A stretch of DNA of 64,000 nt, taken from assembly GCA_023251095.1 (NCBI GenBank), contig JAHEZL010000004.1, positions 48,226-112,225 of the forward strand. Reading direction: 5' to 3'. The DNA comes from Flavobacteriales bacterium. Its GTDB lineage: Bacteria > Bacteroidota > Bacteroidia > Flavobacteriales_C > GCA-002722245. Position 1 is the first letter of the stretch. Every line of letters starts with the position of its first letter. The position numbers were made by a program, and so were the translations under genes. This document shows, piece after piece, positions 9,011 through 57,752 of the stretch. The notes below the pieces were generated by a model. The model had not been told where the DNA came from. It did no database searches and worked only from the letters and a program-made list of their open reading frames with translations.

Positions 9011-9221
9011 GACAATCCGGTTAATTCGCTAAAGGTAAAAAAAATAGGCAATTGGAAACAGTCCCCTGATTTTAGGGGCTGAATGTCGTTTTGTCAGGAC
9101 TATCCTCGGACTTTTAAATCTTTGTCGGATATATAATGACAAAAGGTGTCAACCTGTCTATTAAAAACCAATGGCACAGGCATTGACAGTAGCACAGCAT
9201 AACAATTTAAAAAACACAATA

Positions 9222-11144
9222 ATGGCTAAAATTATAGGAATCGACTTAGGAACAACCAACTCATGTGTGGCTGTAATGGAGGGAAATGAACCGGTTGTAA
9301 TTTCCAACAGTGAAGGTAAAAGAACAACACCTTCTATTGTTGCATTTACAGAAAACGGAGAAAGAAAAGTGGGCGACCCGGCTAAACGTCAGGCGATCAC
9401 CAATCCAACAAAAACTATATTCTCTATTAAGAGATTTATGGGGGTTACTTTTGATCAGGTGACTGAAGAAATCAAAAGAGTACCTTATACAATAGTAAAA
9501 GGTGACAACAATACACCAAGAGTAAAAATCGACAATAGAGATTATACCGCTCAGGAAATTTCTGCGATGATCCTTCAAAAAATGAAAGGAACTGCGAAAG
9601 ACTTTTTGGGTACTGAGGTAGTAGATGCTGTTATTACAGTACCTGCTTACTTTAACGATGCACAAAGAAAAGCAACTAAAGAAGCCGGAGAAATTGCCGG
9701 TTTGAATGTAAAAAGAATTATCAACGAGCCTACTGCTGCTGCGTTAGCGTATGGTTTGGATAAAAAAGGAAAAGATATGAAAATCGTTGTGTTCGACTGT
9801 GGTGGCGGAACACATGACGTATCAATATTAGAATTGGGTGACGGTGTATTTGAAGTAAAATCTACTGATGGTGATACTCACTTAGGTGGTGACGACTTTG
9901 ACCACGTGATCATCGACTGGTTGGCTGCTGAGTTTCAAAGCGAAGAAGGTTTGGATTTGAGAAAAGATCCAATGGCTTTGCAACGTTTGAAAGATGCTGC
10001 TGAAAAAGCAAAAATCGAATTGTCAAGCACAGCTTCTACTGAAATCAACTTGCCATACATTATGCCGGTAAACGGAATTCCTAAACATTTAGTGAAAACC
10101 TTAACCCGTGCTAAATTTGAGCAATTGGCAGATAGCTTAATCAAAAGAACGATCGAGCCTTGTAAAACAGCTTTGAAAAACTCTGGTTTCACTGTAAGTC
10201 AAATCGATGAGGTTATCTTAGTAGGTGGATCTACACGTATTCCTGCTATCCAGGATGCAGTTAAAGCTTTCTTCGGAAAAGAGCCTTCTAAAGGTGTTAA
10301 CCCTGACGAGGTAGTGGCAATTGGTGCTGCAATCCAAGGTGGTGTATTGACCGGTGAAGTGAAAGACGTATTGTTATTAGATGTAATTCCTCTTTCTTTC
10401 GGTATTGAAACTTTAGGTGGTGTATTGACTAAAATGGTAGAAGCAAATACTACTATTCCAACCAACAAAAAAGAAGTTTTCTCTACTGCTGCTGATAACC
10501 AACCTTCTGTTGAAATTCACGTATTGCAAGGAGAACGCGCAATGGCGAAAGACAATAAATCATTAGGAAGATTCCACTTAGATGGCATTCCTGCAATGAG
10601 AAGAGGTGAAGCGCAAATTGAAGTTACTTTCGATATTGATGCCAACGGTATCTTAAACGTAAGTGCTAAAGAAAACAAAACAGGTAAACAACAAAGCATT
10701 CGTATCGAGGCTTCTTCCGGATTATCTAAAGAAGAAATCGAAAAAATGAAACGTGAAGCTGAATTGAATGCTGACTCTGATAAAATAGCCAGAGAAAAAG
10801 TAGACAAATTAAACCAGGCTGATGCTCTTGTTTTCCAAATTGAAAAACAATTGGAAGAGTTGGGTGATAAATTGGCTGATGATAAAAAGAAACCTTTGGT
10901 TGATGCGTTGACTGCTTTGAAAGCTGCTCACCAATTGCAGGATTTGAGTTTATTGGAATCGGCTACTAAAGGTGTTAATGATGCTCACCAAGCCATAGCT
11001 GCTGACATTCAAGCTGCTTACCAAGCTGGTGCAGGTGCTGCCGGACAAGCGCAGGGAGCTGCTCCGGGTGGTGCTTCTTCTACAGGAAAAGATCAGGAAG
11101 TAACTGATGTTGACTTTGAAGAAGTTGCTGACGAGAAAAAATAA
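9222..11144 (+). CDS. dnaK: molecular chaperone DnaK (Hsp70)
   Basis: [26 protein letters not shown]-type ([14 protein letters not shown]) and [11 protein letters not shown] motifs. The ORF-track start at 9171 is extended upstream; the ATG at 9222 gives the canonical N-terminus. Confidence 0.97.
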
Positions 11145-11164
11145 GAAGTGATTCTTAGTATATG

Positions 11165-11199
11165 AAAAAAGGAGAGTAGAAATACTCTCCTTTTTTTGT
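11165..11199 (+). terminator. rho-independent terminator of dnaK
   Basis: Hairpin GGAGAGTA-gaaa-TACTCTCC followed by T7. Confidence 0.8.
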
Positions 11200-11227
11200 T
11201 TTATTTGGTTGATTGGGGAATCGCGAT

Positions 11228-11368
11228 TCCTCTCTACGTCATTGCGAAATTTTTGTACTCAAAAATGAAGCAACCTTATGTTGGTTAACTAATTAAAAAA
11301 ATAAGTATAATGAGGTTGCTTCATTTTTGAGTACAAAAATTTCGCAATGACGTAGGGGGAAATGACGA
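11228..11368. repeat. long-palindrome intergenic repeat, copy 1 (arms ~45 bp: CGTCATTGCGAAATTTTTGTACTCAAAAATGAAGCAACC)
   Basis: Near-perfect inverted arms separated by a ~40-nt loop. A second copy with the same arms lies at 41522..41678. Confidence 0.8.
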
Positions 11369-11394: not shown

Positions 11395-12426
11395 TTACAA
11401 CTTCATCATCTCCTCCAACACCACTCTCAAATCAATTTTTATTTCATGTAAATCTTCGCTTGAAGGTTTGTTCTTAGCGAATATGATCAGGTAGTCCTCG
11501 GTTACCTGAATGTTTTCCATGTAGCGGGCATCAGGAAATTTGCTCAATAAAAATTTGCGGTTGAGTTCTACAATTTTTCCTCTTTTCCAATCTACAATAA
11601 ACAAACTGTTTTGAATAGCGGGGTAGGGTTGGTTGAGAACAATCACATAGTCGTTGTAAGTTTTTACATCAATGATACTTTCCCATTCCACTTTTTGAAT
11701 GTTGTTGTATAAAGCACCGTCACTTACGAATACCCAGGAATACAAAGAATCTTTTTTAATAAAAATTCCATGTGCCGACTGGAAGAGCTGGAAGTTTTTT
11801 GCACTGTCGAGTCTTATAGGATAAACAGCATTGACATCATTTCTGTTGAGTGAAATGGCCGACGAGTGATATTTCCCGAGATAAGTAACATAGGCAGCGG
11901 AGCAAGTGTCTTTCAGTTGGTGAGAAGAGTAAAGTCCTTTTAATAAAAGAGTATCGGTAATGAGTAATCTGTAGTTTTTGGGAAGAGCAGGTTTTTGTTT
12001 TGTCCATGCCGATTGAAAAATACTGTAGCCGGTGAAGTAGGTATTGTTGAGTATTGTTTTGGTAACGTAATTATCCAGAAGCCATAATAATGATTGGTCG
12101 GCTTTTTTAGTGAGCGGTACAGAAAACATCAGAGAATCAATTTTTGGTAAAGCTTTCGCTCCGATACTGTCTGTAAAATAATTTGGAAGAGGAGTGACTT
12201 TTACCAAACTGTGTTTTGTTTCCTGGCGCTGATAAGGAAGTTTGTATTGTGTTTTTGTTGCGCCGTCGGTATAGCTTGCAAAATCAAGAGTTCCGATAAA
12301 GTAAGTTACGGTGAGTTCATCTACAATGCCGTCTTCGTTAAAGTCGGCAGAAAAATATTTGGTATCATTTTGGGCAAAGGCAGAGCAAGTGAACAGGAAA
12401 AATAAAATGAAGCAAATTGTTTTCAT
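11395..12426 (-). CDS. hypothetical secreted protein
   Basis: Internal Met at 12426 gives the signal peptide MKTICFILFFLFTCSAFAQ. The ORF-track N-terminal extension (MPIIPKRKK...) lacks signal logic. Confidence 0.5.
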   Translation of the reverse strand: MKTICFILFFLFTCSAFAQNDTKYFSADFNEDGIVDELTVTYFIGTLDFASYTDGATKTQYKLPYQRQETKHSLVKVTPLPNYFTDSIGAKALPKIDSLMFSVPLTKKADQSLLWLLDNYVTKTILNNTYFTGYSIFQSAWTKQKPALPKNYRLLITDTLLLKGLYSSHQLKDTCSAAYVTYLGKYHSSAISLNRNDVNAVYPIRLDSAKNFQLFQSAHGIFIKKDSLYSWVFVSDGALYNNIQKVEWESIIDVKTYNDYVIVLNQPYPAIQNSLFIVDWKRGKIVELNRKFLLSKFPDARYMENIQVTEDYLIIFAKNKPSSEDLHEIKIDLRVVLEEMMKL

Positions 12427-12650
12427 CTGGAATTCTCGTTTTCTTTTTATTGTCATATGGAATGCCATCATTGTTATTTTTTTTCTTTTTGGAATGATGG
12501 GCATTTCATATTCCTTCGAAGATAGATTTTTGCAAGCTTACTCTGTACGAATAATTTGTATTTAGGTTTTCTCATTCTGATGTTGAAAACAAAAGTGTTG
12601 TTTAGTGAACTTGCAAAGCGTGTGCCGCGTATTACAAGAAAACTACATTT

Positions 12651-13162: not shown

Positions 13163-13216
13163 ATGATGCCAGCTAACTAACTCTCCTCCTTGAAAAGGAG
13201 GAGAGTTAGTTAGCGA
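13163..13216. repeat. solo hairpin repeat of the CTCC-TTTGAAAAA-GGAG family
   Basis: ATGCCAGCTAACTAACTCTCCTCCTTGAAAAGGAGGAGAGTTAGTTAGC. Same family as the repeats flanking the DUF559 gene at 21.6-22.2 kb. Confidence 0.7.
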
Positions 13217-13292: not shown

Positions 13293-13313
13293 ATCTTCGG
13301 TTTCCCGTTGAGA

Positions 13314-13595
13314 TTACTTCTTTTTAGCAGGAGCTTTTTTAGCGGCAGCTTTTTTCGGTGCAGCTTCTTTTTTAGGAGCAGCGGCTTTTTTCTCAGCAAC
13401 TTCTTTTTTAGGAGCGGCAGCTTTAGCAGTAGCTACTTTTTTAGGAGCAGCAGCTTTTTTAGTTGTGTCGTCCTTTTTAGCACCTGCAGCTTTCTTAGCA
13501 GCTACAACTGTTTTAGACGGTTTTGCCGGTCTGGAATTTCCTCTTGATCCTTTGAATCTTTTTCCTTTTGCGGTTTTTTTATCTCCTTTTCCCAT
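13314..13595 (-). CDS. histone H1-like (lysine/alanine-rich) DNA-binding protein
   Basis: 93 aa made almost entirely of AKK/PKK/AAK repeats (…KKAAAPKKVATAKAAAPKKEVAEKKAAAPKKEAAPKKAAAKKAPAKKK). Confidence 0.8.
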   Translation of the reverse strand: MGKGDKKTAKGKRFKGSRGNSRPAKPSKTVVAAKKAAGAKKDDTTKKAAAPKKVATAKAAAPKKEVAEKKAAAPKKEAAPKKAAAKKAPAKKK

Positions 13596-13629
13596 GATTA
13601 AAAATTTAATTTTTTATTGGTTGAATACT

Positions 13630-13661
13630 CAAATGTAATTAAAATATTTTTGCTGTATCAA
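13630..13661 (-). promoter_or_regulatory. Bacteroidetes sigma-A-type promoter (TTG-N21-TAcaTTTG) of the first H1-like gene
   Basis: Minus-strand read: TTGATACAGCAAAAATATTTTAATTACATTTG, about 35 nt upstream of the ATG. An identical architecture sits upstream of the second H1-like gene. Confidence 0.5.
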
Positions 13662-13707
13662 TAAATAGTTGGAATGGTGTTGTGGGGGTGATGGAAAAAT
13701 AAAGGCA

Positions 13708-13744
13708 CAAAAAAAAGGTTCATGTAAACATGAACCTTTTTTGT
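13708..13744 (-). terminator. intrinsic terminator of the second H1-like gene
   Basis: A8, then AGGTTCATG-taaa-CATGAACCT, then T7. Same taaa loop as the terminator of the first gene. Confidence 0.75.
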
Positions 13745-13760
13745 TTGCTTTAAGCTAAGA

Positions 13761-13958
13761 CTATTTTTTCTTAGCAGCGGCTTTTTTCGCTGGAGCTTTT
13801 TTTGCAGCAGCTTTCTTAGCTGGAGCAGCTTTCTTAGCAGCAGCTTTTTTAGGAGCAGCTTTTTTCTTAGGAGCAGCTTTAACAGCTTTTTTCGCAGCAC
13901 CTACTTTTGTAGTTTTTTTCTTAGCTACTACTTTTTTTGTTTTTGCTTTTGTTGCCAT
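13761..13958 (-). CDS. histone H1-like (lysine/alanine-rich) DNA-binding protein, paralog
   Basis: 65 aa, MATKAKTKKVVAKKKTTKVGAAKKAVKAAPKKKAAPKKAAAKK.... Confidence 0.8.
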   Translation of the reverse strand: MATKAKTKKVVAKKKTTKVGAAKKAVKAAPKKKAAPKKAAAKKAAPAKKAAAKKAPAKKAAAKKK

Positions 13959-13987
13959 AATTTTAAAATTTAAATGGTTGATTTAGT

Positions 13988-21596: not shown

Positions 21597-21653
21597 CTTC
21601 ACACATTCAACGCACTCCTCCTTTTTCAAAGGAGGAAGGAAGTTAGCTGGCAT
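21597..21653. repeat. hairpin repeat of the CTCC-TTTTTCAAA-GGAG family (inverted copy of the 13163 repeat)
   Basis: CTCCTCCTTTTTCAAAGGAGGAAGGAAGTTAGCTGGCAT is the reverse complement of the 13163..13216 unit ATGCCAGCTAAC...CTCCTCCTTGAAAAGGAGGAG. Confidence 0.7.
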
Positions 21654-21693
21654 TTCCTGAAAAACATATTTTGAGAATGGATGAGTATGGGAC

Positions 21694-21752
21694 TTCTCCC
21701 TTTGAAAAAGGGAGAGTGCGAGGGATTCTGTGCGAAGGCAAGAGGGATTTTT
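21694..21752. repeat. left inverted repeat of the DUF559 cassette
   Basis: CTTCTCCCTTTGAAAAAGGGAGAGTGCGAGGGATTCTGTGCGAAGGCAAGAGGGATTTT. Matches the reverse complement of 22152..22211 (first 24 nt identical, about 85% overall). Confidence 0.75.
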
Positions 21753-21787
21753 TTATCTTTATCCCGCCAAACTAAACATTTTACTCA

Positions 21788-22153
21788 GTGAAAATCCATT
21801 ATAAAAACTACTTGAATCGCTATGCGAAGAATTTGAGGAATGTCTCTACTTATTCCGAAATATTATTGTGGAATGAATTAAAACAAAAACAAATTTTGAA
21901 TATGCAATTCAATCGTCAAAGACCAATTGGTAATTATATAGCGGATTTCTATTGCGCTAAAGCAAAGCTGATTATTGAATTAGATGGAATTACTCATCAT
22001 AGCGAGGAGCAGTATAGTTTGGATGTGCTGAGGCAAGCGGAATTAGAAAATATGGGGTATAAAGTTTTAAGATTTTCGGATGAAGAAGTGATGAAGGATA
22101 GACAAAATGTGTTGAGGACAATTGAGATAGAGTTAGAAAAACGATTCGGGTAA
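21788..22153 (+). CDS. DUF559 (Vsr-like endonuclease fold) domain protein
   Basis: …AKNLRNVSTYSEILLWNELKQKQ…FNRQRPIGNYIADFYCAKAKLIIELDG…H…E… matches the DUF559 pattern. GTG start; AT-rich relative to neighbouring genes. Confidence 0.75.
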   Translation: MKIHYKNYLNRYAKNLRNVSTYSEILLWNELKQKQILNMQFNRQRPIGNYIADFYCAKAKLIIELDGITHHSEEQYSLDVLRQAELENMGYKVLRFSDEEVMKDRQNVLRTIEIELEKRFG

Positions 22154-22211
22154 AATCCCTCTTTCCGCCGCACCATAAGCCCTCGCGCTCTCCCTTTTTC
22201 AAAGGGAGAAG
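22152..22211. repeat. right inverted repeat of the DUF559 cassette
   Basis: Reverse complement reads CTTCTCCCTTTGAAAAAGGGAGAGCGCGAGGGCTTATGGTGCGGCGGAAAGAGGGATTTT. Overlaps the last codons of the DUF559 ORF. Confidence 0.75.
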
Positions 22212-22264
22212 TTAGTTAGCGACCATACTTTGAAGTAGTGGATTTAAAAATCACTCCATTTTAG

Positions 22265-23191: not shown

Positions 23192-23310
23192 TTTAATTAG
23201 GATTAAGCAGTCGCAAAAGTACAGTAATACTTTTGGTTTTTTATAAGCAGAAGCTGAAAGCTTCAAGAAAATATTCCGCTAAGTTGAAAACTTAGCGGAG
23301 CGTTGTGTTA

Positions 23311-39800: not shown

Positions 39801-41514
39801 GGCTACCACTGCGGGAACTTATAATTTAAGTGTTACCGATGCTTCAAGTTGTACTGCAACAGATGCGATCAATGTACATATCAATGCGGCCATCACGCTG
39901 AGTCTCGGGACTTCTGATACTTTGTTTATTTGTCCGGGAGGATCCGTTACTATAAATCCTGTTGTTCCTGCGGGAACTTTAACTTACTTATGGTCAAACA
40001 TAGCGAGTGGATCAGCCACTACTTACAACGCTACTTTAGAAGGATGGCACACCGTAAAAATTACCGATGCTTTGGGTTGCAATGCCAAAGACAGTGTGTA
40101 TGTGAAAGAAAACAGCAAGTTGGTTTTTTCACTCGCAGATAAAACAATTTGTGTTGGCGACAGCATCGTTTTAAATCCGGGATATTCCGGTGCAGGTTAT
40201 ACTTTTGCATGGAATACGGGTGATGTTACACCAACCAAAACTGTGAAAACAGCGGGGATTTATGGACTGGTAGTCACCTACAATGGATCTTGTTCGGGAA
40301 GTGATTCAATGAATTTAATTATGTATCCAGTGGCTGATGTTAATTTGGGTGCTGATACCATTTTTGTTTGTGCAGGTGCTACAACATCTATTGATGCAGG
40401 TGGTGCATTTACAAATTATGTTTGGTCGAGTTCGGAACAAACAAAAGTAATCAACAATAAAGCACCGAATAAATATGTGGTGAATGTTACCGATGCAAAC
40501 GGATGTAAAGACAAGGATTCGGTAATAGTATTTGCGCGACCTTTGCCAATTGTAAATATCGCTAATGATATAGATACTTGTGCGGGAGTGACTGTTACTT
40601 TATCGAATAGCGTTAATCAAACAGGCATCACTTATAAATGGACTAAAATAAGCACGGGCGCGAATTCACAGGGCGCTACATCTACTTTGGTCATTACACA
40701 AAATGATACTTATATTTTAACTGCTACTGATGCTTCTTCCTGCAGCGACAGCGATACAGCATTGGCCAATTTCAGAATAGTTCCTGTTGTGGATTTATGG
40801 CCTACTGATACTGCTGTGATGTGTTCGGGTGATGTGTTGCCGCTGGATGCTGCTAACGTGGGTGATACTTATTTATGGAATACTACTCAAACTTCACAAA
40901 CGATTTCAGCCACCAGCGAAGGGTTATATTTTGTTACCGTAAGCAATGGAATGTGTAAAGATCAGGATTCCCTTTACGTTAAAGAAATTACACTTCCGCG
41001 CGGAGTATTGAATGATACACTGCTTCCTTTGTTGCCTTATTATTGTTTCGCCGAAGAAAGTGCAACACTGTCGGCAGCAAGCATGGATAACGTTACTTAC
41101 AATTATTTGTGGAGCACGGGAGCTACTACACAATCCATAGCGATAACTGCGGAAGGGACTTATAGCGTCACGGTAAGTGCCGACAATTGTTCGGTGAAGG
41201 ACGATGTTTCGGTGATTGATTTTTGTCCGACTACCTTCTTTGTTCCTAATGCCTTCACGCCAAATGGAAATGGAAGCAATGAAACTTTTCAGGTGGTGGG
41301 ACAATACATAGAAAATTTTGAGCTATTGATTTTTAACCGATGGGGAGAAATCATTTATAAGAGTACTGATTTTCACCAGGGATGGGATGCTACTTGTCAC
41401 GGCAGAAAAGTACAACAGGATGTGTATGTATGGAAAGTGCACTATGCCGTAAATTTACCGAATGGTAAAACTCAGGAAAGAGAAAGAATGGGGCATGTGA
41501 CGGTGATTTATTAA
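36829..41514 (+). CDS. giant cell-surface protein, paralog of 31160..36691, with T9SS type-B C-terminal domain
   Basis: The N-terminal ~400 aa and C-terminal ~100 aa align with the upstream paralog (PTNKPSWAIADMVAHR // PSNHPEWAIAIAVAWN; CPTTFFVPNAFTPNGNGSNETF…LLIFNRWGEIIYKS…). Same Ig-like module repeats. Confidence 0.85.
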   Translation: MGAKNFFTKKLRALCVFSFLSFSSLQLFSADITVSFCPVSKIQAGKQWNATIQIQNNTGVILDLNNPANLFTFNWPSLVSLPYPYQNGTQAGTTWKFNIAGVVTWDSKMPVGATWSQAFTGALFSGVLQFPTSGTFKQGATTYTVSVANCNQTQNYELYDATFDFKRECFIYSPTKLCLGQAATEIWQGEGVFDAMVPTNKPSWAIADMVAHRLFTNLVGQDIVSPNFWMATAMNESRMTCDPTITPNLTGGHTYINANASSGVPGAGISNTTDNCFQVLNIGYTQIENNQPDLFAQTNAYGTASYSTVVDNGNWETGALAVAYYHYQDLRYWDQIYCFNVPKTWKDAKDPYAIEKIFYHAFHDGPNAGISLLNDIKANYAAATNAVNMNTVITTGGTWSAPNGGSSMKVGNFTSLLDGGSGLLYPGQTKTNYTTQYLGCYNAAIKWTDVVYYLGKIKILYPKLQTAAIQTAIKAVFDGINGGANVNFEDLGPVIDEIVIQMGGHDPSKYIATQFSASHTCPTNALGISLRTNDTICPGTTGTLQVWLSGDANFKVTIKYPDASLHTFSNINYSPYNVPITQPGAYEVTYFEDNSRIGDLNCLFSKLTVQSKNGNVVTWDKTNVTGVGAAKCATGDLILKNTGPNAVAITYTKDGGAPITVNFTAGQTTKTIASPGLAGQYIIKTMTPNTCGTSILDTITICNTSCTKPTAAISGGAPICQGDSTQLSVALTGTSPWKIKINDGTIVKTYKSGITTIPYTFYVKTAGVYKIDSVWDATCSNVGTVATSAVTVNPLSTIAIAGDTSICPGGTATLTLTLTGTAPYAIKVTTGVTIVNLVAPGNTYVVPLTTIGTYTLDVTDANGCKKSKTVKIINETPPTVTIGDTIKFCPGGSTPVSVPAGFTSYLWSTNGITNSITVNAATTSPVWIEVTDANGCKARDSAVTKQGQLSVNIGPADTTLCFGSSITLDGGAGFSTYAWTGAKTGSAQTLVATTAGTYNLSVTDASSCTATDAINVHINAAITLSLGTSDTLFICPGGSVTINPVVPAGTLTYLWSNIASGSATTYNATLEGWHTVKITDALGCNAKDSVYVKENSKLVFSLADKTICVGDSIVLNPGYSGAGYTFAWNTGDVTPTKTVKTAGIYGLVVTYNGSCSGSDSMNLIMYPVADVNLGADTIFVCAGATTSIDAGGAFTNYVWSSSEQTKVINNKAPNKYVVNVTDANGCKDKDSVIVFARPLPIVNIANDIDTCAGVTVTLSNSVNQTGITYKWTKISTGANSQGATSTLVITQNDTYILTATDASSCSDSDTALANFRIVPVVDLWPTDTAVMCSGDVLPLDAANVGDTYLWNTTQTSQTISATSEGLYFVTVSNGMCKDQDSLYVKEITLPRGVLNDTLLPLLPYYCFAEESATLSAASMDNVTYNYLWSTGATTQSIAITAEGTYSVTVSADNCSVKDDVSVIDFCPTTFFVPNAFTPNGNGSNETFQVVGQYIENFELLIFNRWGEIIYKSTDFHQGWDATCHGRKVQQDVYVWKVHYAVNLPNGKTQERERMGHVTVIY

Positions 41515-41521
41515 GCTCCTC

Positions 41522-41678
41522 CTCGTCATTGCCCTCTCCGTCATTGCGAAATTTTTGTACTCAAAAATGAAGCAAACTCATTACATAATAAGTTCACTTT
41601 TTTTAGCTACTTCCCATTATGAGGTTGCTTCATTTTTGAGTACAAAAATTTCGCAATGACGGAGAGGGCAATGACGGG
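41522..41678. repeat. long-palindrome intergenic repeat, copy 2 (arms ~60 bp)
   Basis: CTCGTCATTGCCCTCTCCGTCATTGCGAAATTTTTGTACTCAAAAATGAAGCAAACTCAT … ATGAGGTTGCTTCATTTTTGAGTACAAAAATTTCGCAATGACGGAGAGGGCAATGACGGG. Starts 8 nt after the stop of the giant gene. Confidence 0.8.
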
Positions 41679-41690
41679 AGTGTAATGTTT

Positions 41691-41819
41691 TACCCTTTCA
41701 CTTCTTTCTTCACTTCAGCTTTTGTGTAAGCAGGACAAACTTCATGTGATCCTGTGCAAGAACTAAGGATTAATGACAATAGGAATAAGCCCAATAAGAT
41801 TCTGGATGAGTATTTCATA
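41691..41819 (-). CDS. putative small lipoprotein (42 aa), not in ORF track
   Basis: MKYSSRILLGLFLLSLILSSC-TGSHEVCPAYTKAEVKKEVKG with a lipobox LSSC. Ends in …KEVK like the 14823 mini-lipoprotein. Confidence 0.35.
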
Positions 41820-43657: not shown

Positions 43658-43782
43658 GTTCGTCACGTTCGCTCCGCGCTCACGGCTTTGCCGGCGCGGA
43701 ATCTTTTTTCTTACGAAGCTTTGCTTCGTTAATTAATAATGAAATACGAGGCGAAGCCGTGAGCGCGGAGCGTGTGAACGAC
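43658..43782. repeat. GC-rich long inverted repeat / bidirectional terminator-like structure between convergent prmC and argS
   Basis: 20-bp perfect arms GCTCCGCGCTCACGGCTT…AAGCCGTGAGCGCGGAGC separated by ~65 nt that contain a secondary hairpin CGAAGCttTGCTTCG. About 70% GC in an AT-rich genome. Confidence 0.6.
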
Positions 43783-43795
43783 GCCCGAAAAAAAA

Positions 43796-57613: not shown

Positions 57614-57690
57614 TTTAGGTAATGGTTTTTGTAGAGACGCAAAATTTTGCGTCTCGTGATATGGTTTGTCGGAGACGGAAAATCTTCCGT
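57614..57690 (+). terminator. twin-hairpin terminator region (GAGACGcaaaattttGCGTCTC and GAGACGgaaaatcttcCGTCTC nested in an outer TGTAGAGACG…CGTCTCTACA palindrome)
   Basis: Two near-identical 8-bp-stem hairpins inside a larger palindrome, directly after the stop of 54819..57605. Confidence 0.55.
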
Positions 57691-57752
57691 CTCTACAAGA
57701 AACATACACTCTCTCTGCTTCAAAGGGGGTAATTCCGATAAGTACTTGTTTG

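Follow-up and report, generated by a model that had tools for sequence, protein, structure and literature searches.

A 64,000-nt stretch of DNA from a Flavobacteriales bacterium (assembly GCA_023251095.1, contig JAHEZL010000004.1, positions 48,226 to 112,225; hereafter the window) contains two long intergenic palindromes. Each of them is made of two 43-nt hairpin units, with their CGTC tags outward and a variable spacer of 30-37 nt between them. We consider, with a probability of about 0.72, that these palindromes are head-to-head homodimers of a hairpin unit of the repetitive extragenic palindrome (REP) type, that they belong to the CGTC-tagged class, and that they are non-coding and served by a protein encoded elsewhere. 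The family, hereafter family A, is a new CGTC-tagged REP-type family from uncultured freshwater Flavobacteriales; the kind of element is already known. It adds a REP-type family where such repeats are barely described, in uncultured freshwater and groundwater Flavobacteriales, and what appears in the raw sequence as 150-bp "long palindromes" is the dimer of a small tagged hairpin. Such elements break assemblies of metagenome-assembled genomes (MAGs) and can be confused, during annotation, with non-coding RNAs (ncRNAs), transposable elements of the miniature inverted-repeat kind (MITEs) or terminators.

A tagged 43-nt hairpin in head-to-head pairs

The two palindromes, delimited by inverted-repeat search and folding, are organized as follows.

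11221..11368, no strand: copy 1, whole palindrome, a head-to-head homodimer with a degenerate outer shell
11221..11236, + strand: copy 1, left outer shell, TCGCGATTCCTCTCTA, a degenerate second tag-like motif
11237..11279, + strand: copy 1, left unit, with CGTC tag (11237-11240), foot ATTGC (11241-11245), GAA, apical hairpin ATTTTTG-TACT-CAAAAAT (11249-11266), GAA, GCAAC (11270-11274) and tail CTTAT
11280..11309, no strand: copy 1, spacer of 30 nt, AT-rich, without counterpart in copy 2
11310..11352, - strand: copy 1, right unit of 43 nt, its tag reading GACG at 11349-11352 on the plus strand
11353..11368, - strand: copy 1, right outer shell, TAGGGGGAAATGACGA (reverse complement TCGTCATTTCCCCCTA)
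41524..41676, no strand: copy 2, whole palindrome, a head-to-head homodimer with an intact outer shell
41524..41538, + strand: copy 2, left outer shell, CGTCATTGC CCTCTC, a second direct copy of the 9-mer formed by tag and foot
41539..41581, + strand: copy 2, left unit, from CGTC (41539-41542) to GCAAA (41572-41576), with tail CTCAT
41582..41618, no strand: copy 2, spacer of 37 nt
41619..41661, - strand: copy 2, right unit
41662..41676, - strand: copy 2, right outer shell, GAGAGG GCAATGACG

The arms of copy 1 (11221-11279 and 11310-11368) are 59 nt long, 90% complementary and 30 nt apart; those of copy 2 (41524-41581 and 41619-41676) are 58 nt long, 98% complementary and 37 nt apart. The first-pass annotation had thus rightly recognized two long palindromic repeats with near-complementary arms, but the central loops, which it put at 40-50 nt, measure 30 and 37 nt between the longest arms. 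A 37-mer, CGTCATTGCGAAATTTTTGTACTCAAAAATGAAGCAA, occurs exactly four times in the window, once in each arm of each copy, and was never matched in 100 dinucleotide-preserving shuffles (chance expectation 0). When folded as single-stranded RNA, copy 1 reaches -91.2 kcal/mol (z -15) and copy 2 -106.9 kcal/mol (z -22). The outer shell had been described as an extra feature of copy 2; it is indeed present and intact there, but it is not special to this copy, being found in degenerate form in copy 1 and also at a locus of another genome (L007). Copy 1 was recovered, identical or with one single-nucleotide polymorphism, in two independent metagenome assemblies, showing that it is real DNA and not an assembly artefact.

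The repeated element is not the long arm, as had been proposed, but a 43-nt CGTC-tagged hairpin of which the palindrome is the tag-outward dimer. Its consensus reads 5'-CGTC-ATTGC-GAA-ATTTTTG-TACT-CAAAAAT-GAA-GCAA(T/C/A)-C(T/C)C(A/C), the tail being also written C-TCAT. A lone unit is predicted to fold (z about -3) into a 5-bp foot and a 7-bp apical stem, separated by a symmetric 3x3 GAA/GAA internal loop; a 4-nt loop closes the stem, and the 4-nt tag and the tail are left unpaired. We aligned 24 units, gathered with exact 20-21-nt seeds. The cells predicted to pair are paired at 94% over this alignment, compared with 37-55% when the partners are slid. The core foot pairs are kept in 23-24 of the 24 units; the second stem pair is always T-A (24/24), whereas the first is A-T in only 10/24, its 3' base being T, C or A. 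Of the 24 units, 23 have an NGTC tag, which is CGTC in most, TGTC in L002 and GGTC in L005 and L006, and the C directly 3' of the foot is invariant (24/24); the tag, this C and the core foot pairs all lie beyond the seed used to scan genomes. This C is followed by TCA, TTA or TCC, and the apical loops are TACT, TACC or CACT.

The structure can also be kept with another sequence. The partner unit at L014 keeps the frame (GCGAAA ... GAAGCAAT-C) but its AT-rich apical hairpin is swapped for ATCCGTC-GGCT-GACGGAT, which again has 7 bp and a 4-nt loop. At L015 the partner unit is a different, longer hairpin, and in the partner units of L007, L011 and L012 the apical hairpin is progressively lost.

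Dispersal and turnover of family A

We scanned the GTDB species-representative genome collection with an exact 20-mer of the arm, which matched 12 loci in three incomplete Flavobacteriales/Bacteroidota MAGs (JBJTOK01, from GCA_046074525.1, JAPLEZ01 and JAHEZM01). A 21-mer of the arm retrieved three metagenome contigs, and an extra copy was found at an orthologous locus, L023. With the exception of L023, the sites elsewhere are non-orthologous to the window copies. Coding DNA of the host genomes is ~66-70% identical to the window where it can be aligned, and the repeat unit is ~95-100% identical. The first-pass suggestion of a dispersed, hairpin-substrate-type family rather than a mere oversized terminator is therefore well founded, given these non-orthologous intergenic sites in other genomes. 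Searches with both arm halves gave no match in viral contigs, blastn with copy 1 gave none in a plasmid collection, and no match to the repeat sequence itself was found in the literature.

All copies are intergenic and lie amid housekeeping genes, as judged by Pfam scans of their neighbours, except for the diverged L013, near which a tyrosine integrase is encoded. Most are found at gene 3' ends, and four (L002, L008, L009 and L011) lie between divergent genes, in promoter regions. The family occurs as singlets (L001, L002, L004, L005, L008, L010 and L013), as six homodimers, i.e. symmetric inverted doublets (the two window copies, L003, L006, L009 and L023), and as five heterodimers, i.e. asymmetric doublets (L007, L011, L012, L014 and L015). 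The tags point outward in all 11 dimers, and the spacers between the 43-nt units range from ~1 nt (L012) to ~50 nt, the homodimers having the longer ones.

The dimer, rather than the lone unit, appears to be what is copied, in a manner reminiscent of REPINs, because derived states are shared within and between dimers. L011 and L012, two unrelated loci of one MAG, have the same derived partner unit, CGTCATTGC(G/A)AGGAGGAACGACGAAGCAA. Moreover, both arms of L023 contain an extra A in the internal loop together with the change from TGAAGCAA to TTAAAGCAA, and both arms of L003 have a G to A change in common; the outer shell, too, is common to the two window copies and L007.

Three of these loci call for separate comment. 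L004 was considered as an orthologous dnaK site because its neighbouring open reading frame (ORF) is also 657 aa long; this was rejected, since the proteins are unrelated by BLASTP. The most diverged family-A-like unit, at L013 1966-2013, matches in the tag and first half of the unit only and lies ~230 nt upstream of a tyrosine integrase gene with an Arm-DNA-bind_5 domain (ORF 584-1735), which could be a coincidence or the relic of an att region. At L001 (1383-3876) a singlet has a PPDK_N gene on one side and, on the other, a CRISPR array of ~30 repeats (repeat GTTGTGATTTGCTTTCAAATTGTTCTTTGAAGATATTTACCACAGT). The array's first repeat is truncated and runs on, at ATTG, into a second direct copy of the 5' end of the unit, CCTATCGTCATTG, which suggests that recombination or an insertion took place at the array edge.

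Orthologous positions reveal turnover of these elements. The slot of copy 2, between the gene of a CHU_C protein and a 42-aa ORF followed by TraB, was retrieved from three relatives (L023, L024 and L026), and across these and the window it has four different occupants. In the window it holds family A with the outer shell. In L023, whose TraB is 92% identical and whose flanking coding DNA is ~93-95% identical to the window, it holds a family-A dimer of another subfamily, without outer shell and with a spacer and flanks that cannot be aligned to those of the window. In L024, from the JAPLEZ MAG, the occupant is a canonical TGTC-tagged REP dimerized tail to tail, TGTC-ATCCTGAAC-TTGT-TTCAGGAT-C, and in L026 it is a third palindromic family. 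Likewise, the dnaK slot of the JAPLEZ MAG (L018) is devoid of family A and contains two other palindromes and a duplicated terminator. The slots are thus refilled again and again by different palindromic repeats.

Two observations on the dnaK side may be added. At L018 5033-5459, the dnaK terminator and an adjoining "CTGAACCTTGAT..." repeat are duplicated on either side of a GC-rich palindrome of ~190 nt (CTCGCGCGCGTCTGTGACGCGTGCGGATTTAT...), which looks like an insertion with duplication of ~60 nt of target. At L019 (5048-5166, JBJTOK contig 69) the contig stops 119 nt past the orthologue of the 369-aa ORF found beside copy 1, within what appears by eye to be the C-terminus of an IS3-type OrfB (..YNKNRRHSALGNLTIKEF..); the dnaK-side slot of the JBJTOK MAG would therefore be interrupted by an insertion sequence (IS), where the assembly breaks.

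Known repeat systems, candidate partners and competing explanations

REPs have been split into GTAG-tagged and CGTC-tagged superfamilies, the latter including Neisseria dRS3 and Rickettsia RPE-4/6 (Di Nocera, De Gregorio & Rocco 2013, PMC3733652). CGTC REPs have an unpaired CGTC (or TGTC/CCTC) tag, a stem starting with A-T, 4-5-nt loops and a short tail; they mostly form tag-outward, head-to-head homo- or heterodimers with 20-100-bp spacers, mainly 3' of ORFs, and they are found in Bacteroidetes (G. forsetii) without an associated transposase (PMC3733652). Family A shares with them the unpaired tag with TGTC variants, the 4-nt loop, the mainly head-to-head homo- and heterodimers, the intergenic location mainly 3' of ORFs, the reported occurrence in Bacteroidetes and the lack of an adjoining transposase. 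Its second stem pair is T-A in 24/24 units and its first is A-T in only 10/24, and its short unpaired 3' tail, C(T/C)C(A/C), is similar but not identical to CCA. The family is distinct from all four CGTC families described so far: the unit body is 33 nt long instead of ~21-23 nt, a further tag-like shell surrounds some of the copies, and the apparent copy number is low.

The enzyme that serves such repeats may be of the Ssn type. SsnA, a 94-aa GIY-YIG nuclease, binds and cuts single-stranded DNA (ssDNA) of the Neisseria CGTC-1/dRS3 repeats in an extended form, the NTS CGTCATTCCCGCGMAVGCGGGAATCYRG (Nat Commun 2025, PMC11893778). Within its hairpin substrate, CGTCATTCCCGCG..CGGGAATC, binding depends critically on the C that follows the palindrome, and cleavage on the 3 nt upstream of it; ssn genes are typically bracketed by NTS-type motifs (PMC11893778). 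Like the NTS, family A is a directional motif that starts with CGTCATT and finishes with AAT-C, and both positions critical for SsnA are conserved in it (GTC in 23/24 units, C after the foot in 24/24).

We looked for Ssn genes with a query sequence representing the family, which in tblastn was 65% identical to the Neisseria gonorrhoeae locus and 60-64% identical to annotated rhizobial GIY-YIG proteins. This query also found a Spirosoma plasmid gene, upstream of which lies a tag-outward dimer of TGTC-ATCCC-GAGGAACGA-GGGAT-C. The Spirosoma protein in turn yielded 1736 homologues at E<=1e-8, mostly from Bacteroidota; those described here are among the best 120 of the 1736. One homologue, P0206 (PF01541, 100 aa, 60% identical to the Spirosoma protein), is encoded on JAPLEZ010000145 (GCA_026390935.1), that is, in the MAG that carries the family-A loci L005, L007, L011 and L012 and is syntenic with the window. 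Its gene is bracketed by ~45-nt inverted TGTC-motif units, a layout resembling NTS-ssn-NTS, and dispersed copies of these units occur in L005 and L007. P0171, 78% identical to P0206, belongs to the ENA sample series that also includes the strain of the window, without being tied to the window genome; its gene is bracketed by tag-outward TGTC dimers, with two more downstream, forming palindromes of ~115 nt. P0240 has a like layout with the unit TGTC-ATTTC-...-GAAAT-C. In all, three Ssn genes besides that of P0206 have tag-outward TGTC dimers beside them, folding into palindromes of ~100 nt. A long-palindrome appearance is therefore normal for tag-outward CGTC/TGTC dimers around Bacteroidota Ssn genes, one of which resides in a MAG hosting family A.

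Enzymatic action on family A, the identity of the enzyme and a role at the RNA level are what we infer. In a single-stranded state, during replication, repair or uptake, the DNA unit would fold, and a hairpin-specific enzyme would recognize the GTC directly 5' of the foot and the C directly 3' of it. The best candidate would be an Ssn-family GIY-YIG single-strand nuclease, a Y1 transposase of the REP-associated tyrosine transposase (RAYT) type being less likely. New copies would land in tolerated slots at gene 3' ends and displace one another there, and a dimer transcribed within a 3' untranslated region (UTR) could form a very stable RNA hairpin acting as a terminator or 3'-end protector. Such a secondary role is plausible for copy 2, which has no other terminator, and would be redundant for copy 1, which comes after the terminator of dnaK. 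An Ssn-type ssDNA nuclease is thus only tentatively put forward as the likeliest trans-acting partner; a RAYT in that role seems rather improbable, and a DDE transposase is unlikely. A bolder proposal, which we regard as somewhat doubtful, is that family A is a divergent composite-hairpin Ssn substrate, extending the Ssn/SRM system beyond its published motif, and that its dimers are interchangeable "mobile terminators" replaced at gene 3' ends. If true, a system for ssDNA restriction or for the control of horizontal gene transfer would be coupled to transcript 3'-end formation. Should the Ssn link prove correct, the SRM pattern as published is too narrow to cover Bacteroidota, and the partnership between Ssn proteins and repeats is broader than now defined, which would be relevant to the mining of new sequence-specific ssDNA nucleases.

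A number of observations weigh against family A being a CGTC-tagged REP with such a partner. Its stem is AT-rich and split (5 bp, 3x3 loop, 7 bp), whereas the four described CGTC families have continuous stems of 8-9 bp, as does the occupant of the JAPLEZ slot (L024). Since the units were gathered by exact seeds, conservation within the seed reflects ascertainment bias, and the covariation in the stem comes from a single variant unit, i.e. one event. The copy number looks low, with 2 copies per 64 kb in the window and 2-6 loci matching the seed in each incomplete MAG. Neither a clean empty site nor a fresh insertion junction came to light: the CHU_C slot is filled in every relative, the contigs of the same strain all have copy 1, and the P0003 contigs lack synteny. 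The published SRM pattern, HGTCWYN(0-2)YYVSBRHN(0-5)WNVSBRGN(0-2)RNCYNB, does not match family A; written as a regular expression it recovers the NTS control, but it fails as well on the L024 TGTC unit and on the motifs found around the Bacteroidota Ssn genes, that of Spirosoma among them, and it has 0 matches in all sequence examined. Neither a GIY-YIG nor a Y1 gene adjoins any family-A copy in the ~243 kb sampled, as judged by a weak screen with sequence queries and a regular expression. The Ssn gene of the window organism itself was sought and not found, nor was any ssn gene with family-A flanks, those recovered from the lineage (L028 and L035) being flanked by other TGTC-type families. Because the JAPLEZ Ssn gene is accompanied by a different repeat family, its cognacy with family A is unproven and the enzyme is one that we infer.

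The first-pass annotation had compared the palindromes to IS200/IS605-type hairpins. This was conceptually close, as the architecture is related to that of REPs and REPINs, but the tag is CGTC and not GTAG, and the closest experimentally defined relatives are substrates of Ssn (GIY-YIG) rather than of TnpA/TnpB. As an alternative to an Ssn partner, family A could be a REPIN of the kind known from Pseudomonas and E. coli, its doublet being cut and copied by a RAYT, a Y1 (HUH) transposase. Like the REPIN/BIME elements mobilized by RAYTs, family A consists of two inverted tagged hairpins forming one long hairpin, with the doublet as the apparent replicating unit, singlets as apparent remnants, and distinct families coexisting in one genome; a GTAG-tagged inverted pair at 57622-57705 of the window also indicates that a RAYT-type system may exist in the lineage. 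This explanation is nevertheless unlikely. The guide tetranucleotide is CGTC and not GT[AG]G, and the stems are AT-rich, unlike the GC-rich ones that the RNAMotif rules demand of canonical REPs. CGTC repeats had no associated tyrosine transposase in the study of Di Nocera et al. (PMC3733652). Furthermore, no Y1 gene was detected in the window or at the loci in what was a weak screen, tblastn with IS200 and RAYT queries giving nothing below E = 0.1.

The location of the copies raises the question of whether they are locally selected cis-acting structures that do not move, i.e. bidirectional terminators or stabilizers of mRNA 3' ends whose likeness comes from a shared binding factor. Both window copies sit between convergent genes, in the contexts that had been described, 3' of the dnaK terminator and of a 1561-aa surface protein gene. 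dnaK (9171-11144; HSP70, E 1e-251) has its own intrinsic terminator at 11162-11199, upstream of copy 1, which faces the stop codon of a convergent 369-aa ORF (11395-12504, minus strand). The gene of the 1561-aa CHU_C protein, of the type IX secretion (T9SS) kind, ends at 41514, and copy 2 begins 9 nt later, facing the stop of a convergent 42-aa ORF (41690-41818, minus strand). A cis-acting role would agree with the position of these and most other copies at gene 3' ends, with their extremely stable folds, with copy 2 being the sole hairpin between its two genes, and with the CHU_C slot never being empty, as all four related genomes have a strong palindrome there. On the other hand, copy 1 comes after the complete dnaK terminator, no U-tract is found at the palindromes, the copies at L002, L008, L009 and L011 lie between divergent genes, in promoter regions, and singlets cannot form the long hairpin. 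The occupation of one slot by unrelated families also argues against a sequence-specific cis function. The arms match no annotated ncRNA family, membership of which was what the first-pass annotation had said would count against its reading: Rfam gave 0 matches at gathering thresholds over the whole window, and in E-value mode only eukaryotic miRNA-precursor models appeared, as generic long-hairpin matches at about one third to just over two thirds of their thresholds. As the sole explanation a cis-acting structure is thus improbable; a cis-acting role is in keeping with the repeat-element explanation and probably subordinate to it.

The first-pass annotation had also listed MITEs, and a classical MITE would be an internally deleted IS with long terminal inverted repeats, moved by a DDE transposase in trans; we consider this very improbable. 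Family A shares with Correia/ERIC-type palindromic MITEs a near-perfect intergenic palindrome of 100-160 bp that is co-transcribed with its neighbours, and the long inverted arms, the non-coding ~150 bp, the repeated CGTCATTGC 9-mers as possible multiple transposase-binding sites and the IS3-like remnant (by eye) at the JBJTOK contig end would all fit. Unlike such MITEs, however, it lacks a TA or other target duplication: no consistent target-site duplication was found at offsets 0-13 over the boundaries of 12 elements, and the only candidate matches were self-complementary TA or AGCT, equally well explained as extensions of the palindrome. It is also built of modular units and dimers, with common singlets and heterodimers and with an apical hairpin swapped while its geometry is kept, and neither a full-length IS parent nor an adjoining transposase was found.

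Three minor possibilities were discarded. The complementary flanks outside the tag might mark insertion into a palindromic target, but no empty target such as CACCCAGTACTGGGTG exists in 222 kb; the flanks also resemble each other between copies and make better sense as an outer portion of the element that varies. A by-eye check for Bacteroidetes -7/-33 promoter boxes gave no convincing match. Invertible promoters or Xer sites were rejected on geometry, given spacers of just 30-37 nt, the dispersal of the copies and the lack of a nearby recombinase other than at the diverged L013.

Other repeats of the window

The window contains several other repeat families. The GTAG-tagged pair at 57622-57705 consists of two canonical REP hairpins in inverted orientation, GTAGAGACGCAAAATTTTGCGTCTC and GTAGAGACGGAAGATTTTCCGTCTC (DNA fold -9.6 kcal/mol, z -7.3). 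In the JAPLEZ MAG (L018) a like motif comes right after the stop codon of dnaK, suggesting that the lineage has a second repeat system, of the GTAG/RAYT type. Between prmC and argS, at 43660-43785, lies a palindrome bounded by CGTC...GACG whose arms (43670-43692 and 43750-43772) are 96% complementary; it may represent a second CGTC-type dimer family. In relatives the prmC-argS position is occupied by an inserted Fic gene (L024) or an SLFN/AlbA_2 gene (L026).

A 121-aa ORF on the plus strand (21788-22153), between an ABC-3 permease gene and a TPR gene, encodes a DUF559/Vsr-like endonuclease (PF04480, E 6.5e-35). Within the region 21600-22212 it is bracketed by 39-nt inverted repeats (21692-21730 and 22174-22212) that are 92% complementary and each contain a small hairpin, CTCCCTTTGAAAAAGGGAG, with a related hairpin at 21611-21638. 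The region resembles a small selfish cassette with a REPtron-like layout. A perfect palindrome with a 20-bp stem, GCTAACTAACTCTCCTCCTT-GAAA-AGGAGGAGAGTTAGTTAGC, is found at 13168-13216; its family is also present at 21623-21664 of the window, in L007 (5670-5814) and in L015 (3117-3276), and in its core it is similar to the hairpins that surround the DUF559 gene.

On the minus strand, 13300-13960 is occupied by dense 15/18-nt periodic repeats with small lysine/alanine-rich (AAKK-type) ORFs, which have no Pfam match and look like histone-H1-like proteins. Finally, a short palindromic repeat at 23244-23301, CGCTAAGTTGAAAACTTAGCG, is 86-92% identical, together with its surroundings, to a sequence of the JAPLEZ MAG (L007 3709-3805), and constitutes a further intergenic family.

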